The notes under the pieces were generated by a model that was not told the DNA's origin, did not search any database, and was given only the letters and a program-made list of their open reading frames with translations. The position numbers and the translations under genes are program-made. This document shows, in pieces, positions 470 to 8,564 of a DNA stretch of 19,380 nt. Source of the stretch: Candidatus Thorarchaeota archaeon (GTDB lineage Archaea > Asgardarchaeota > Thorarchaeia > Thorarchaeales > Thorarchaeaceae). The stretch is from NCBI GenBank assembly GCA_048882325.1, contig JBHLRS010000050.1, forward strand, positions 1 through 19,380, in the 5' to 3' direction. Position 1 is the stretch's first letter; each line of letters opens with the position of its first letter.

Positions 470-1579
470 TTAAGGGGAGCGATTTCGATTCCCCAGGGTT
501 GCGTTTGCTACCGATGTCACCCATTTTGCGCTGATGATGAAAGGATATACTATGCCTTTCACAAATTTCCTGAATGTCGAAGATTTTTCCATTTTTCTGT
601 TGATGGCTGGAGTAAATTGATAATAGCGGTTCAGAATCGATTCGAATGGAGCCTTGAACCTCGAATTCAAAACGATCTCATCCCTGAACTGTCGAAGATA
701 CTGCAAGTTTGAAAGCATCACTGGGAGTGATGAACTGGAAACAGTTCTTGTAATAGGACAAATACTTTTACAACTCCCATAGATAGATTGAATCCCATTC
801 TTATCATCTGTTCTTAGGGTTCGTCGTTTCCCACTATAGTAGGCATACATCACAGCTTGAGTGTCTGTTGAGTGTGATAAACCCAATATATGACCTAGCT
901 CGTGAAGAGCCACGGTAACAAGATCAAATCCAGTCGGAGGGTCATCATCAGTCCACAGTTCGTCCTCATCAAAGTGTAGTCTTCCATCTTGAGGGTAGAA
1001 AGCATGCGCTAAAACACCCCCTGGACCATCAAAGGCAGAGCCATCGCCGTGATCTCCCGATTCCCAGCTCAGACTTATATCGCCTCCAGATTTTACTTCG
1101 CTAAAACTAACACATGATTCTGAAGCCCATTGATTAAATGCATCCAGAACAGCTCTCCTCACTACGCTCTGGGCCAAGTCTGGGGTATAATTGAGGAAGC
1201 GGTACGTGAGAGCTAATTTGTCCCACTTTCTTCCACTATAGACATAATCGTCGACCTGCCCTTCAGACACCAAAAAGTCTGGGAGTCCGCATCTTGGCTT
1301 CAGCATTAGATTGATTGTCGGTTTATCAAGGATTCCTGTGACTGGTAGACTGTTAAATCGTTGGAACTCTTTGAGTGCTATTTCTGTTTTATTATCGAAA
1401 TCTTTGGGTTCTGGTTCTTCAATAGCCTTTTCTAGGTCAACTTTCACACCGAATGGTGCAACCTCGTCAGGACGAATGTAGCCAAATTTTTTGAGGTAAC
1501 CCTGTAGACGACCTACTTCGTCGCCTTTATCGCCGGTTTTTAACCCAATTTGAGTTGGTACTTCTATTCTGTTCACCAT
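470..1579 (-). CDS. Matrixin (peptidase M10A, MMP-like) with PGBD-like pro-domain, cysteine switch and C-terminal CFI-box-CTERM-like domain
   Basis: PGBD-like LKTGDKGDEVGRLQGYL...ALKEFQRFNSLPVTGILD; cysteine switch PRCGLPD (aa 95-101); structural Zn/Ca loop HGDGSAFDGPGGVLAHAFYP...HFDEDELW; HELGHILGLSH (aa 226-236); Met-turn AVMY; SD-like GGTGA at 1587-1591 on the minus strand. Confidence 0.93.
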   Translation of the reverse strand: MVNRIEVPTQIGLKTGDKGDEVGRLQGYLKKFGYIRPDEVAPFGVKVDLEKAIEEPEPKDFDNKTEIALKEFQRFNSLPVTGILDKPTINLMLKPRCGLPDFLVSEGQVDDYVYSGRKWDKLALTYRFLNYTPDLAQSVVRRAVLDAFNQWASESCVSFSEVKSGGDISLSWESGDHGDGSAFDGPGGVLAHAFYPQDGRLHFDEDELWTDDDPPTGFDLVTVALHELGHILGLSHSTDTQAVMYAYYSGKRRTLRTDDKNGIQSIYGSCKSICPITRTVSSSSLPVMLSNLQYLRQFRDEIVLNSRFKAPFESILNRYYQFTPAINRKMEKSSTFRKFVKGIVYPFIISAKWVTSVANATLGNRNRSP

Positions 1580-2455: not shown

Positions 2456-2474
2456 ACTTTACATCTGACATATT

Positions 2475-2520
2475 CGAAGATTTAATAGTGGTGAGCGTTG
2501 CATTTTCCTATCTGGAGGTG
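2475..2520 (+). promoter_or_regulatory. Putative BRE/TATA (CGAAGA-TTTAATA) and SD (GGAGGTG) for deoC-aor
   Basis: TTTAATA at 2481-2487 preceded by purines; GGAGGTG at 2514-2520, 5 nt before the ATG at 2526. Confidence 0.5.
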
Positions 2521-2525
2521 TTTCC

Positions 2526-3347
2526 ATGGACCTCACTATGGAAAAACTAGCCAAGATGATTGATCACACTGTTCTAAAACCGGAAACAACCAGGGCAAAG
2601 ATCAAACAGCTGTGTGATGAGGCAACTATCTATGAATTTGCTGCAGTTTGTATCAATCCTATTCATGTTCCATATGCTGTGGAACTACTCAAGGATACTG
2701 ATGTGAAAGTTTGTGTTGTAGTAGGATTCCCTCTAGGTGCTACAACACCTGCGGTGAAAGCATGTGAAACAGCAGATGTTGTTGCAGCTGGTGCTCAGGA
2801 GGTTGACATGGTAATCAATGTCGGAGCAATGCGAGATGAGAATTATGACCTTGTCAAGCGTGATATACAGGCCGTAATAGAGGCTTCTGGAGACGCACAT
2901 GTAAAGGTCATTCTAGAAACTGGATACTTTACTGATGATCAGAAGGTAAAGGCATGCCTGATTTGCAAAGAAGCAGGAGCTGATTTTGTCAAGACATCAA
3001 CTGGATTTGGTCCCATGGGTGCCACCCCTCATGATGTCAAGCTGATGCGGGACACAGTTGGTCCCGATATGGGTGTCAAGGCTGCAGGTGGAATTCGCTC
3101 GTTCAAAGATGCAATTCGTGTTATCGATGCTGGAGCAAATCGTCTTGGAACCAGTGCCGGTGTAGCCATTGTGGAGGACTTTAGATGGGCTCAATACAGT
3201 GACTCTTGGATGACACCGGACAGACCATGTTGGACCTGTCCAAGTCGAATGGCGAACATGGCAAAGCAACCGAAAGAGGTCTACAAGTGGTACAAGGAAC
3301 GTTGTCTCACTTGTCCCGATAAGGAGCACAATGTGTTCACTGATTAG
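2526..3347 (+). CDS. deoC: Deoxyribose-phosphate aldolase (DERA) with extra C-terminal Cys4 extension
   Basis: [29 protein letters not shown], Schiff-base Lys in [22 protein letters not shown]. Confidence 0.97.
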
Positions 3348-3359
3348 GAGGTCTAATGA

Positions 3360-5150
3360 ATGTCTAAGTCTTCACTATATGCTGATGTCCCAATTCTACA
3401 TGTCAACCTGAGTGACAAGAGTATTCGTAGAGAACCAATCGCTCCTGAGATCTTCAAAGAATACCTCGGTGGTCGAGGACTTGGTGTCAAACTTGTCTAT
3501 GACCATCTTGCTCCAGGAACCGATGCACTCTCTCCCGAGAATATCCTTGTGTTTGCGGTAGGCCCCTCAACAGCGACGAGGGTTCCAACTGCAGGAAGAT
3601 TCGTAGTGGTCACAAAGTCTCCAACAACTGGAACTATGTTCGATTCTCATGCTGGAGGATATTTCGGTGCTCAATTGAGAAGAGCAGGGTTCGCAGCTGT
3701 GGTCCTTTACGGAAAAGCGGAGTCTCCAGTGTACCTCTGGATCAATAATGACGAGGTCGAAATCAGAGATGCATCAAAGGTCTGGGGTAAGGATGTCTAT
3801 GAAACAACCGACCACCTGTTGAGAGAAACCGATGAAAAGGCACAAGTCGCTTGTATAGGTCCAGCTGGAGAGAATCTAGGGTTAATGGCTGCCATCATGA
3901 CAGACAAACACAGAGCAGCTGGTCGTGGTGGAGTCGGGGCTGTAATGGGATCTAAGAACCTCAAAGCAATCGTAGCAAAGGGGACCGGTGAAGTCAATTC
4001 TCATGATCAAGAACGTCTCAATGCTGCAGTAGAGCGGGCTCGAAGATTAATCAAGAAGAACGCTGTCACTAACAAGTCACTCCCTGTTTATGGTACTCCT
4101 GTGCTTGTGAGTGTGGCAAATGAATTAGGCATGCTTCCTACAAACAACTTCCAAGAAGGCACATTCAATGATGCTGATGGCGTGTCAGGTGAGAAACTCT
4201 TAGAACGGTTCTCTGCAGGCACTTACAACTGTCATGGATGCCCGATAGGCTGTGGCCGTACAAGTCTGATAAAGGGAGAGAAGATAGGTGGACCAGAATA
4301 CGAGTCACTCTGGGCTCTTGGTCCTCAGTGTGGTATTAATGACTTGGAATGGATTGCAATCGCTAATGACAGATGCAACCATCTCGGTCTAGACACAATT
4401 TCTACAGGATCCACAATTGGTGCTGCAATGGAACTCGTTGAGAAAGGGAAACTAGATGCACCCCTGAAATTCGGTGATACAACTGGCATTCTCGAAATCA
4501 TCGAGGACATAGCCTATATGCGAGGTCTTGGGGCTGAGATGAGCGAAGGGTCAAAGAGGTTGGCTGAACGTTATGGTGCACCAGAATTAGCCATGCAAGT
4601 GAAAGGGCTTGAACTCCCGGCTTATGACCCACGTGGAGCACAAGGTCACGCGCTTGGCTATGCCACCTCAAACCGAGGAGGTTGTCACTTGCGGTCATAC
4701 TTGATCGGTCCCGAGGTTCTAGGTTCTCCCGTCTTAGTTGACCGTGATAGGCCCGATGGAAAGGCTGACCTTGTGATGCTCTATCAGGACTTGTCAGCAG
4801 CTATGGACTGCATGGTCGTCTGTCGCTTCACAAACTTTGCTTGGACTGTTGATGACTATGCAGAGATGATTTCTGCAGGAACTGGATTAGAGCTCAGTGG
4901 TAGAGATTTACTTCAACTGGGTGCGCGAATTTACAATCTAGAGCGCCTCTTCAACCTGCGGGAGGGATTCACCTCGAAGGACGACACGCTCCCGCCAAGG
5001 TTCTTCAAACCACTCCCAGAGGGCGGCTCACGAAAGCGTGTAGTACATCTGGAACAGATGCTGAAGGAATACTACAAACTCCGTGGATGGGACAAAGAAG
5101 GTAGACCAACCAAAGACACGTTGAAGAAGTTGGACCTTCCGGTTTCTTGA
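3360..5150 (+). CDS. aor: Tungsten-dependent aldehyde:ferredoxin oxidoreductase (AOR family)
   Basis: YLGGRGLG, KSP.TG, AAGRGGVGAVMGSKNLKAI, [4Fe-4S] ligands CHGCPIGC plus a distal Cys (DCMVVCRF), GPEYE, GLDTIS, AYDPRG, RGGCH; SD GGAGGT at 3347-3352. Confidence 0.95.
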   Translation: MSKSSLYADVPILHVNLSDKSIRREPIAPEIFKEYLGGRGLGVKLVYDHLAPGTDALSPENILVFAVGPSTATRVPTAGRFVVVTKSPTTGTMFDSHAGGYFGAQLRRAGFAAVVLYGKAESPVYLWINNDEVEIRDASKVWGKDVYETTDHLLRETDEKAQVACIGPAGENLGLMAAIMTDKHRAAGRGGVGAVMGSKNLKAIVAKGTGEVNSHDQERLNAAVERARRLIKKNAVTNKSLPVYGTPVLVSVANELGMLPTNNFQEGTFNDADGVSGEKLLERFSAGTYNCHGCPIGCGRTSLIKGEKIGGPEYESLWALGPQCGINDLEWIAIANDRCNHLGLDTISTGSTIGAAMELVEKGKLDAPLKFGDTTGILEIIEDIAYMRGLGAEMSEGSKRLAERYGAPELAMQVKGLELPAYDPRGAQGHALGYATSNRGGCHLRSYLIGPEVLGSPVLVDRDRPDGKADLVMLYQDLSAAMDCMVVCRFTNFAWTVDDYAEMISAGTGLELSGRDLLQLGARIYNLERLFNLREGFTSKDDTLPPRFFKPLPEGGSRKRVVHLEQMLKEYYKLRGWDKEGRPTKDTLKKLDLPVS

Positions 5151-5198
5151 AATAGCTAATCTGAGTGGCTCCATCAGAACCAATGGAGATGGAACTAA

Positions 5199-7151
5199 CT
5201 GGCCAGAGGAAACCGAAGACGCAGGAAATTCCGTAGAGGGCACGCTCCATATCTTGCAAAAATCCGTTTCTTCTGGTGCGATACTTGCAATGTGCCTCGC
5301 ATTGCAAAGACTGAGTGTAGCGCATGCAGAACCATGTCGAGAAAGATTGAACTCTCTCCTCCTGGAGACCCTTTTCCTGCCATGGAGGGACATCTTGAGC
5401 GTGCAAAGATTGCCATCGATGCACAGTATGGCAATGGAGTCGGTGCAGAGTTACTCCCATCTGACAAGACCATCATTCTGAACAAGGTGTCTTCACTTGA
5501 TGCGATGTATGAGATTATTGTTGATGGCTACATTGTGGGTCGGTTAAGGTTTGAAATACCAAAACGAAGTTACACTTTCCTTCTGTCACTTGAGGGTGCC
5601 CGTAGGATTGGTACTGTGAGTAGACAGAAGTGGGTCACAATTCACGATGGAGTCTTGAAGTACCTGAAAGATGGTGCCAACCTCATGGTTCCTGGAATAG
5701 TGGGGTGTGACTCAGGGATTCAAGTTGATGATGAGGTATGGATCGCAGACACTAATGGTCAAGTTGTAGGATCCGGAATATCCCGAATGACTGGAGCGGA
5801 TATGGCAAAAGAGAAGAAAGGCTTCGCAGTTAAGATCCGTGCGGTTGAAGACCCGACGCCATCCTCTGAGAATTCAAAGTCTGCCTCATGGGAGGATGCA
5901 GTGAATGCCAACCTGAGCGACTTGACCAGGGTAGAAGACGAAGCAGTTGCCTTCGTCAAACGTATCGCTGCAAAAGAAGACCTCCCAATAGTTGTGGGAT
6001 TCAGTGGTGGAAAGGATTCACTAGCCACCTATCTTGCAGTTGAAAAAGCCATAGGATCCAGTCCGCCAATCTTCTTCATGGATACAGGGATTGAACTCCC
6101 TGAAACTATTGAGTACATCAAACAATTTGCGAAGTCTCGAGGTGTATCGATTATCGGGCAAGAGGCAGGAGACCGGTTCTGGGAGTCTGTTGATATCTTT
6201 GGCCCTCCAGCTCGTGACTTTCGATGGTGTTGCAAGGTCCTGAAGCTTGGTCCTGCGGCCACTTCGATAGCTGATGAGATGGGTGGAGAAACCCTGAGCT
6301 TCATGGGTCAACGAAAGCTGGAGTCCTTCCAAAGATCGATTGAGCCACGGGTGACAGAGAACCCGTGGGTTCCCGGTCAGCTGTCAGCAAATCCAATTCA
6401 GAACTGGAACGCTCTTGAGGTATGGCTCTATATCTTCAGGGAAAAATCCGAATTCAATCAGTTGTACAACCAAGGGTACCACAGAATGGGCTGTTATCTT
6501 TGTCCTTCTTCTCCTCTGGCTGAGTTGGAAGGTCTCCGTGAAACTCATCCTGAGTTCCATGAGAAATGGGAGTCTAAGATGCAAGAATGGGCGCAAAAGT
6601 ATGGTTTTCCTGATGAATGGATTGAGATGGGTTTTTGGAGATGGAAGAAGCTACCGAAAGGTCAGATGGAACTGATCAATAAACTTGGACTGGATATTGA
6701 ACCTGACCGAACGAGTCCAGGTGAAGACCTTGAGCTAAAGGTCACCAAAGGAATTGCTCCATGTACTAAATCTGGCTTCAGTCTTGAAGGTGCATTCTCT
6801 TCCGGTGTTGATTTGAACAGGATTTCCAAAGTGTTTCCAATCTTAGGTCAGACAAGACTATCTGAGGAGATGGGCGTCGTTCGAACCAAGAGTGGTGAAA
6901 ACAGCATTTCACTCTTCAGTTCAGGTTCTGTTGTGGTAAGAGGAAATGATGAAAAAACTGTTGAGCGGCTGACAGAGAAGATGGCACGTGCAGTTCGAAG
7001 AGCTATCTTTTGCCAAGAATGTGGTTCGTGTGTCCCTCAGTGTGAACATGGAGCACTTTCTTTGGACAAAGGAAAGATTACTGTGGATGAGGAGAAATGC
7101 ACAAACTGCCTCAAGTGCGATAATTGGCCTTGTCCAACATACCTTGCATGA
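5199..7151 (+). CDS. Archaeal PAPS/APS-reductase-family protein: Zn-ribbon + PUA + PP-loop [4Fe-4S] domain + C-terminal ferredoxin-like domain; probable CTG start
   Basis: WCDTCNVP...CSAC ribbon lies partly upstream of the ORF-track start at 5292; PUA-like GANLMVPGIV...VVGSG; GFSGGKDS; RWCCKVLK; RMGCYLCP; CQECGSCVPQC...CTNCLKC...C. An in-frame TAA at 5196-5198 bounds the ORF. Confidence 0.9.
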   Translation: MARGNRRRRKFRRGHAPYLAKIRFFWCDTCNVPRIAKTECSACRTMSRKIELSPPGDPFPAMEGHLERAKIAIDAQYGNGVGAELLPSDKTIILNKVSSLDAMYEIIVDGYIVGRLRFEIPKRSYTFLLSLEGARRIGTVSRQKWVTIHDGVLKYLKDGANLMVPGIVGCDSGIQVDDEVWIADTNGQVVGSGISRMTGADMAKEKKGFAVKIRAVEDPTPSSENSKSASWEDAVNANLSDLTRVEDEAVAFVKRIAAKEDLPIVVGFSGGKDSLATYLAVEKAIGSSPPIFFMDTGIELPETIEYIKQFAKSRGVSIIGQEAGDRFWESVDIFGPPARDFRWCCKVLKLGPAATSIADEMGGETLSFMGQRKLESFQRSIEPRVTENPWVPGQLSANPIQNWNALEVWLYIFREKSEFNQLYNQGYHRMGCYLCPSSPLAELEGLRETHPEFHEKWESKMQEWAQKYGFPDEWIEMGFWRWKKLPKGQMELINKLGLDIEPDRTSPGEDLELKVTKGIAPCTKSGFSLEGAFSSGVDLNRISKVFPILGQTRLSEEMGVVRTKSGENSISLFSSGSVVVRGNDEKTVERLTEKMARAVRRAIFCQECGSCVPQCEHGALSLDKGKITVDEEKCTNCLKCDNWPCPTYLA

Positions 7152-7223
7152 AGAGTCAATTACTACCATGTAACAGCAAGGTTATTATCTCCGCTTTTGA
7201 CAGAAGCCTCGGTCGAGCACGAA

Positions 7224-8564
7224 ATGTTGGCAGCGATTAGTTTGCACATCTACAGGTATCGGAAATACCTGGTGCTCACACTTGTTATTTCACTAATCGC
7301 TATACCTATCGCTGACACTCTTGTCATAGAGCGAGACCGCAATAGAAACGAGATGTATGGTGAGGCTTTCTGGCAATACGGATTCGGAGTCTATACACTG
7401 ACTGACACTGACCTGGCTGAACTTATGGGAGAACATTTCAATGACACTTTTCATGAACTCCCATCGTATCTGGGAGGAATTGCATATGAGTATCCTGTCT
7501 TTGGTTTGATATTCTTTGCAGTTGCCACATGGCTGTTTCCTGGCGAGGGAGGTCTACAGCACTTATGGATCAACTTCCTGTTAGCCCTTGTATTCAATTT
7601 GAACCTGGTTCTAATTGCAATACTACTGAAAGACAAACTCCAGACGAAAAATTGGGCTCGGATGTTCTTTGCTGGTTACTTTGTATATGGCCTTGTCATG
7701 TCTTCGGGAGGAGGGAAACTTGAACCACTTGTAGACTGCTTGCTGCTAATGGCACTGGTACTCTGGCAGGAGGGACAATATGGCAAAGCAATGTTTACAC
7801 TTGGTTTGAGTGTACAGACCAAAGTATACTCAGTTGTAGTGTTTCCAGTACTTTTCCTGACAAATCCTGTTTCATCGATATGGTTCCTCGCATCAATGCT
7901 TGTTTCGGTGATTCCATCATTCTTTGGAGCCAGTTTTGACTCCCTCATATCGCACTTCCTAAACACGTCCAGCTATAGTGTGTACATCGTAAATCCAATT
8001 TTCCCGGGGTTGATCTGGGCCACTCCTGTAGACCCAAATGCGGCTGTAATCGAATATTACTGGTGGCCACCTGCCGCTATTCCGCTATTCCTCTATGCAT
8101 TCTTCCTACTGATGACAATCAGACGATATCTTCCATCAAAGAAAGACTTTGAAGGCAAATCGATTCGATTTAAGCTGCTGGAACTCAAACCATTCTATCT
8201 ATATCTACTACCCGGCATACTCTTCGTGTTTCGCTGGATTATGCCTTGGTATCTATATTGGTTGGCTATCGTCGTTTTACTATTTGACAAAGATGAACAG
8301 GCAGTAGGTTATATGAAACAGCTAACGGTTGTGGGTTTTCTATACCTAATAGGTCTGTTCTGTAACTGGCACTACTTCATCTCATATCCATTGCCTGACT
8401 TCATTGGACACTTTCCGCAGGGCGAAAACACCATTCTAGGAGTGGCTCTAATTGCTATTCTTGCAAGTCTGACATACGTACTATGGAGATGGGAATTCAA
8501 TCGCAGGGACAGAAAACAAAAGCTAATTCGTGAAGCAGAAATTCGTGGAGAACTCATTATCTGA
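7224..8564 (+). CDS. Polytopic membrane protein, GT-C (GT87/PimE-like) glycosyltransferase-like
   Basis: Many hydrophobic segments; first-loop YEYPV motif; LGLSVQTKVY (G....K.Y) and MPWY motifs typical of GT-C folds. Start could be TTG 7197 or ATG 7224. Confidence 0.6.
   Translation: MLAAISLHIYRYRKYLVLTLVISLIAIPIADTLVIERDRNRNEMYGEAFWQYGFGVYTLTDTDLAELMGEHFNDTFHELPSYLGGIAYEYPVFGLIFFAVATWLFPGEGGLQHLWINFLLALVFNLNLVLIAILLKDKLQTKNWARMFFAGYFVYGLVMSSGGGKLEPLVDCLLLMALVLWQEGQYGKAMFTLGLSVQTKVYSVVVFPVLFLTNPVSSIWFLASMLVSVIPSFFGASFDSLISHFLNTSSYSVYIVNPIFPGLIWATPVDPNAAVIEYYWWPPAAIPLFLYAFFLLMTIRRYLPSKKDFEGKSIRFKLLELKPFYLYLLPGILFVFRWIMPWYLYWLAIVVLLFDKDEQAVGYMKQLTVVGFLYLIGLFCNWHYFISYPLPDFIGHFPQGENTILGVALIAILASLTYVLWRWEFNRRDRKQKLIREAEIRGELII

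Follow-up and report, generated by a model that had tools for sequence, protein, structure and literature searches.

A candidate deoxyribose catabolic unit in Thorarchaeota: a Cys4-tailed DeoC encoded beside an aldehyde:ferredoxin oxidoreductase

Why does the gene for a deoxyribose-5-phosphate aldolase (DERA; DeoC) lie directly upstream of one for an aldehyde:ferredoxin oxidoreductase (AOR) in an Asgard archaeon? The two genes, deoC and aor, are found on contig C50 (the window: the whole stretch of 19,380 nucleotides (nt) analysed here) of a 3.6 Mb Asgard genome that is 93% complete, and the nearest public relatives of the window are labelled Candidatus Thorarchaeota. Anoxic sediments, the habitat of Asgard archaea, hold a steady supply of carbon in the deoxyribose of extracellular DNA and of nucleosides. 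Judging from sequence comparison, deoC and aor probably constitute a functional two-gene catabolic unit, by which 2-deoxyribose-5-phosphate would be converted to acetate with the reduction of ferredoxin; we infer the substrate, the direction of the reactions, the binding of metal and the physical complex of DeoC with AOR. Taken singly, each enzyme is a typical representative of a familiar family, and it is the pairing of a tailed DeoC with an AOR that appears to be undescribed.

The deoC–aor pair and its enzymes

The features of the pair are as follows.

2474..2488, + strand: B recognition element (BRE)/TATA-like element, TCGAAGATTTAATAG, 38 nt 5' of the deoC ATG; written TCGAAG ATTTAATAG
2514..2518, + strand: deoC ribosome-binding site, GGAGG; GGAG columns invariant or nearly so
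2526..3347, + strand: deoC gene, 273 aa; stop codon TAG at 3345-3347
2526..3176, + strand: deoC catalytic barrel (residues 1-217), short-type class I deoxyribose-5-phosphate aldolase
3177..3347, + strand: DeoC C-terminal tail (residues 218-273, CxxC-21-CxxC) and stop codon; invariant cysteines and aromatic residues
3347..3351, + strand: aor ribosome-binding site, GGAGG, overlapping the deoC stop codon
3360..5150, + strand: aor gene, 596 aa; ATG at 3360

The initial annotation of this DNA had described two genes 12 nt apart, with the aor ribosome-binding site overlapping the deoC stop codon, behind one TATA-like element, and this layout is correct in each respect: deoC ends at 3347 and aor begins at 3360, the GGAGG at 3347-3351 overlaps the TAG at 3345-3347, and the junction reads GAT TAG GAGG TCTAATGA ATG. 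In 20 related loci, too, a TAGGAGG overlaps the stop codon and the gap between the genes is short (2-12 nt, by crude start calls). The single BRE/TATA-like block (2474-2488) is the most conserved part of a diverged intergenic spacer in 17 Thorarchaeota loci, tailed and tailless (consensus CGAAGGGTTAATAG), and may serve as the promoter of deoC. At the other end of the pair, 19 nt past the aor stop codon, there is an inverted repeat (CTCCAT-8 nt-ATGGAG, 5169-5188, + strand) that could be a transcript-end stem-loop, or could have arisen by chance.

DeoC, which is encoded by the only deoC gene in the genome, scores above the family cut-off of TIGR00126 (289.4 bits against 117.3, over model positions 2-210 of 211). 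K156 (in VKTSTGF), D94 (in DMV) and K185 (in GVKAAGG), which we take to correspond to the Schiff-base Lys and the partner Asp and Lys of the Escherichia coli enzyme (K167, D102 and K201), are invariant in 20-21 orthologs and were placed by alignment to PDB 5dbu. The match to solved short-type DERAs covers residues 7-217 in full (283 bits for PDB 5dbu), and the AlphaFold2 (AF2) model of the barrel alternates strands and helices at a predicted local distance difference test score (pLDDT) of ~90. Short-type DERAs (EC 4.1.2.4; PDB 5dbu, 6d33, 3ngj) thus share with the window DeoC the barrel and the positions of the catalytic Lys and Asp; its nearest tailless relatives are DeoCs of Bacillota (~60% identity). 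By these matches, the window DeoC most likely splits deoxyribose-5-phosphate to glyceraldehyde-3-phosphate and acetaldehyde.

None of the solved short-type DERAs carries the 56-residue Cys4 tail of the window DeoC, and a comparison with the PDB found no counterpart of residues 218-273 in solved DERAs. The tail that the initial annotation had noticed is nevertheless real: its four cysteines (C235, C238, C260 and C263), together with W221, W228, W236, Y253, Y256 and F271, are invariant in 20-21 orthologs. Used by itself as the query, the tail retrieved 52 protein clusters, all of them DeoC and almost all of 273 aa, with tails 70-97% identical, so that the tail is conserved at least as well as the barrel. 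More distant tailed DeoCs, some of them labelled Cloacimonetes (bacteria) or Hadarchaeales (archaea), were found by profile and protein searches, all with the four cysteines. A hidden Markov model of the tail gave few matches to representatives clustered at 50% identity, likely because tailed DeoCs cluster under tailless representatives, so that these matches do not amount to a census. Resolution in the tree of DeoC barrels is poor, and the tree neither supports nor rules out a single origin of the tail. Modelled alone by AF2, the tail is predicted to be mostly helical (pLDDT 68, predicted template modelling score 0.43). It most likely binds metal, probably zinc. A rubredoxin-like redox role is unlikely, because the predicted structure is helical rather than a rubredoxin-type sheet. 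An apparent tail at a Bacillota locus (L040) was discarded as a tblastn read-through, the open reading frame itself being without a tail.

The aor product (596 aa) matches AFOR_N (281.6 bits) and AFOR_C (481.8 bits) with full-length coverage. C291, C294, C298 and C488 (a CxxCxxxC motif and a distal Cys) are invariant in 21 orthologs, and we take them, by analogy with Pyrococcus furiosus AOR, to be the [4Fe-4S] ligands. Genes like aorA and aorC, presumably those for the partner subunits of the Aromatoleum AOR, are absent from the window. Against solved AORs the protein scores 636 (PDB 9mqx), 603 (1aor), 600 (9g7j) and 510 bits (8c0z, the Aromatoleum enzyme), compared with 333 for FOR, 219 for WOR5 and 211 for BamB, and only 55 bits against the archaeal GAPOR model (cut-off 1300). 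By these scores, which answer the initial annotation's proposal to place the enzyme among AOR sensu stricto, FOR, GAPOR and WOR, the DeoC-linked AOR belongs to AOR sensu stricto, and it has the same two-domain architecture, length and Cys motif as these enzymes (P. furiosus AOR, PDB 1aor; 9mqx, 9g7j, 8c0z). It differs from them in forming a separate clade that travels with the tailed DeoC: all 18 of the 18 DeoC-linked AORs fall into one clade (Shimodaira–Hasegawa-like approximate likelihood ratio test, SH-aLRT, 99) to which none of the other 11 paralogs among the 12 AOR-family genes of the genome belongs; two of these paralogs reach 519 and 441 bits against solved AORs (the DeoC-linked AOR, 636). 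Its family membership indicates that the window AOR most likely contains tungstopterin and carries out ferredoxin-linked oxidation of acetaldehyde. Three genomes of genus g10 (G333-G335) encode, besides the DeoC-linked AOR, a second one that is 48-49% identical to it and nearer to it than is any paralog of the window genome.

Distribution of the tail and of its AOR

The gene order orf113-deoC-aor-PUA/PAPS-orf455-CTP-transferase is syntenic in 25 Thorarchaeota loci; conservation among close relatives alone is little proof of a functional link. The informative comparison comes from 60 DeoC loci sampled across 400 Asgard genomes. Within the taxonomic family of the window, the frame orf113 ... PUA/PAPS-orf455-CTP-transferase-cdc48 is constant. 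In 7 of the sampled loci (genera g4, g6, g9, g10, g12 and g16, besides g1, that of the window) DeoC is tailed and aor lies between deoC and the PUA/PAPS gene; at the same site in 14 loci (g2, g8, g11, g13, g14 and g15) the DeoC, at only 47-61% identity, lacks the tail, and aor is missing. Since the flanks are constant and aor is found only beside a tailed DeoC, tail and AOR vary as one unit within this frame.

A census of the family (86 genomes; AOR orthologs called at ≥65% identity) gave the same picture, with an AOR ortholog in 65 of the 69 genomes of tailed genera and in none of the 16 genomes of tailless genera. Three of the four tailed-genus genomes without an AOR match have DeoC at or near a contig end or are very incomplete, and the fourth has no DeoC match either. 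In five near-complete tailless genomes there are only AOR paralogs (39-42% identity), which the tree places as orthologs of the other paralogs of the window genome. The tailless deoC (L106-L119) is of a different lineage, and it and the tailed deoC-aor pair seem to be alternative occupants of one chromosomal site, one having replaced the other.

The adjacency is not unique to this genome, a condition under which the initial annotation would have taken its proposal as refuted, nor is it peculiar to Thorarchaeota: besides the 65 of 69 genomes of tailed genera, tailed deoC-aor pairs recur in five unrelated gene contexts without the Thorarchaeota flanking genes, namely in the Asgard families f14 (~70% identity; preceded by a gene for an M42 peptidase), f11 (~50%) and f22 (~54%), and on the metagenome contigs L166 and L167. 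The f14 sequences nest within the Thorarchaeota group in both the AOR and the DeoC trees, which fits transfer of deoC-aor as a cassette. In a metagenome scan seeded with the distant tailed DeoCs (80 loci), AOR is immediately downstream in 4 of 4 Cys4-tailed loci, and in 0 of 64 tailless loci in which 600 nt or more past deoC could be read. Over the Asgard and metagenome samples together, an AOR gene directly follows deoC for 20 of the 23 Cys4-tailed proteins and for none of the 95 tailless ones that have sufficient flanking sequence (31 loci from Asgard, 64 from metagenomes). L166, one of the four tailed metagenome loci and probably a bacterial contig, has the order deoC(tailed)-aor-ThiS/MoaD-like-pyrimidine nucleoside phosphorylase (pdp)-HAD hydrolase-NupG-type nucleoside:H+ symporter; by its gene content, it puts the pair inside a recognisable nucleoside-catabolism operon, and the link to nucleoside catabolism proposed in the initial annotation is supported by this one metagenome operon.

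Several observations concern the loci themselves. On L167, a ParE-family toxin gene (685-936, + strand) lies just upstream of the tailed deoC-aor pair. A second, tailless type of DeoC occurs in family f11 (L140-L142, L164) and at L139, as the C-terminal part of open frames of ~480 aa, the N-terminal ~250 residues of which have no Pfam match; the frame in G066 is 1261 aa. Directly upstream of deoC in the window is orf113 (2114-2455, + strand; 113 aa), for which there is no Pfam or NCBIfam match; at 80-98% identity among all Thorarchaeota loci it is better conserved than either DeoC or AOR, and it is present with or without the tail and aor. Downstream lies a gene for a PUA, PAPS-reductase-like, 4Fe-4S dicluster protein (5292-7151, + strand; 610 bits for NF010368, a family named 'hypothetical'), and after it orf455 (7197-8564, + strand; 455 aa; no family). 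Throughout the family the two keep their place in the gene order, immediately 3' of aor or, in loci that lack aor, of deoC. The remaining window genes have housekeeping roles (FEN1, aIF2-beta, NMD3, RIO kinase, a KH-domain protein, Topo VI B and CDC48). An archaeal protein with peptidoglycan-binding and matrixin (M10) metalloprotease domains and a weak CFI-box-CTERM match is encoded at 470-1579 (- strand).

Proposed pathway and rival explanations

In the proposed pathway, deoxynucleosides would be converted to 2-deoxyribose-5-phosphate by PNP/UDP-type phosphorylases and a PGM/PMM-type pentomutase. The class I aldolase DeoC would split this to glyceraldehyde-3-phosphate and acetaldehyde, and the dedicated AOR, carrying tungstopterin and a [4Fe-4S] cluster, would oxidize acetaldehyde to acetate and pass two low-potential electrons to ferredoxin. 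The Cys4 tail would hold the aldolase on the AOR, by which the volatile, toxic aldehyde would be passed over directly. The genome encodes five PNP/UDP-type phosphorylases and three PGM/PMM-type mutases, the latter presumably the family from which archaeal phosphopentomutase is drawn, as well as six PfkB kinases; a search of the 93% complete genome found no DeoA- or DeoB-type gene.

For the docking step, the predicted DeoC–AOR complex has a score of 0.41, which is weak, the best of three controls being 0.00; agreement on contacts between the runs is at least 23%, and partner pLDDT is at least 83. Of 80 solved complexes, 58 reach the mark set for this score, as do 2 of 110 mismatched pairs; scores of at most 0.60 that still pass it come from 7 of the 80 solved complexes and from both of the passing mismatches. 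Taking co-occurrence and this weak prediction together, docking of DeoC on AOR by the tail is possible, with chances somewhat short of even. The fuller proposal, that the Cys4 tail is a metal-binding clamp forming an acetaldehyde-channelling complex, and that the pair is a mobile cassette among Asgard archaea, other archaea and bacteria, is put forward tentatively, with slightly less confidence than docking as such.

A number of results weigh against the proposed unit or its docking. Related genomes are not independent, and the pooled counts overstate the number of separate events, there being about six independent contexts. In three genomes (G001 of family f3; G006 and G009 of f6) a Cys4-tailed DeoC has no adjacent AOR; G006 and G009 encode elsewhere an AOR that is 55-57% identical and falls beside the linked clade in the tree. 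In Asgard family f8 (L129-L136, L165) a homologous tail (W...KQPKEVY.YY) has lost all four cysteines, and the gene next to deoC is a full-length MutS. AF2 confidence in the tail within the whole protein is moderate (pLDDT 55-73), and one of the three complex-prediction runs scored 0.05. No DeoA/TrpD-type (Glycos_transf_3) gene was found in the 93% complete genome, and 14 of 14 control genomes have one; we take this family to comprise the thymidine and AMP phosphorylases and TrpD. No bacterial DeoB-type gene was found in the genome either, and the window contains no other nucleoside genes (phosphorylase, mutase or transporter).

Three of these results, namely the weak complex score with its one low run, the moderate confidence in the tail and the tailed DeoCs unlinked to an AOR gene in G001, G006 and G009, would also be expected if DeoC and AOR cooperate without contact, with the tail binding a structural metal, helping DeoC to oligomerise or sensing redox state or metal on its behalf. 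We regard this as unlikely, though by no means negligible: the tail is present or absent exactly with the AOR ortholog within one family, which is hard to explain if it serves DeoC alone, and it is conserved at least as well as the barrel. A more distant alternative is that the AOR acts on another aldehyde, either glyceraldehyde-3-phosphate in the manner of GAPOR or an aldehyde derived from amino acids, acetaldehyde being incidental. AOR enzymes have broad aldehyde ranges, and the genome has 12 AOR-family genes; nevertheless, the protein falls far below the GAPOR cut-off, it is nearest to solved AORs proper, and the existence of a dedicated clade whose occurrence follows that of a tail specific to DeoC suggests a product of DeoC as the substrate, so that this alternative appears improbable.

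A shade less probable still is operation in the biosynthetic direction, in which AOR would reduce acetate to acetaldehyde at the expense of reduced ferredoxin and DeoC would condense this with glyceraldehyde-3-phosphate to give deoxyribose-5-phosphate. The reactions of DeoC and AOR are both reversible, as is established enzymology, and AOR reduces acetate in ethanol-forming acetogens. A role of DeoC in DNA-precursor balance has also been proposed for Thermococcus (PMC8346489). This direction is opposed by the presence in the genome of an ordinary ribonucleotide reductase, with which DeoC would be unneeded for deoxyribose synthesis, and by the set of genes on L166 (nucleoside phosphorylase, HAD hydrolase and nucleoside importer), which is catabolic. 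Least credible of all is that the two genes are neighbours merely through inherited Thorarchaeota gene order, with no functional link. The region from orf113 to cdc48 is indeed syntenic across the family, but aor is the sole gene that varies with the DeoC tail inside this constant frame, and the pair recurs in the five other contexts. Catabolism of deoxyribose-5-phosphate by DeoC and AOR is therefore the reading that we prefer among these.

Relation to known systems and implications

In the classical deo operons (E. coli deoCABD; Bacillus dra-nupC-pdp), deoC likewise provides the aldolase step of nucleoside catabolism, and in the distant relative L166, pdp and a nucleoside transporter gene share an operon with it. 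Such clustering is seen in L166 only and not in the window, where the neighbours are housekeeping genes and deoC is tied genetically to aor rather than to deoA, deoB or deoD. Unlike in the classical operons, the fate of acetaldehyde is set beside deoC by a ferredoxin-linked, tungsten-type enzyme. An encapsulin survey (PMC8346489) describes operons with DeoC in Thermococcales only, and without a link to AOR. A full-text literature search, the coverage of which leaves out most subscription journals, found no paper on a DeoC-AOR unit or a tailed DERA.

The closest functional analogues are the pairs DmpG-DmpF and BphI-BphJ (PDB 1NVM; cited in PMC3962088), in which an aldolase that releases acetaldehyde is joined to an enzyme that consumes it; according to work cited there, these pairs sequester acetaldehyde, which is reactive and volatile. 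The resemblance is functional only, as DeoC and the AOR belong to the DeoC and AFOR families and are not homologous to DmpG and DmpF. The Dmp pair consists of a class II metal aldolase, DmpG, and an acylating dehydrogenase, DmpF, which depends on NAD and forms acetyl-CoA, whereas the window encodes a class I aldolase and a tungsten-type AOR that would yield acetate and reduced ferredoxin, possibly in a complex. If docking by the tail does occur, the pair would be a ferredoxin-linked, anaerobic counterpart of DmpFG.

DERA is an industrial biocatalyst limited by the toxicity of acetaldehyde, and a natural partner that removes the aldehyde may be of practical use. The pair is also a compact, experimentally accessible example of a fusion tail by which two enzymes may dock, and the tail could act as a sequence marker for annotating the DeoC-linked AOR clade in metagenomes. 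If the proposed unit is correct, it would provide a physiological substrate for one of the many AOR paralogs, a long-standing gap in this family. For Asgard anaerobes, a DERA-AOR route would explain how acetaldehyde is disposed of without NAD or CoA, and the reduced ferredoxin gained would be available for hydrogen production or CO2 reduction.

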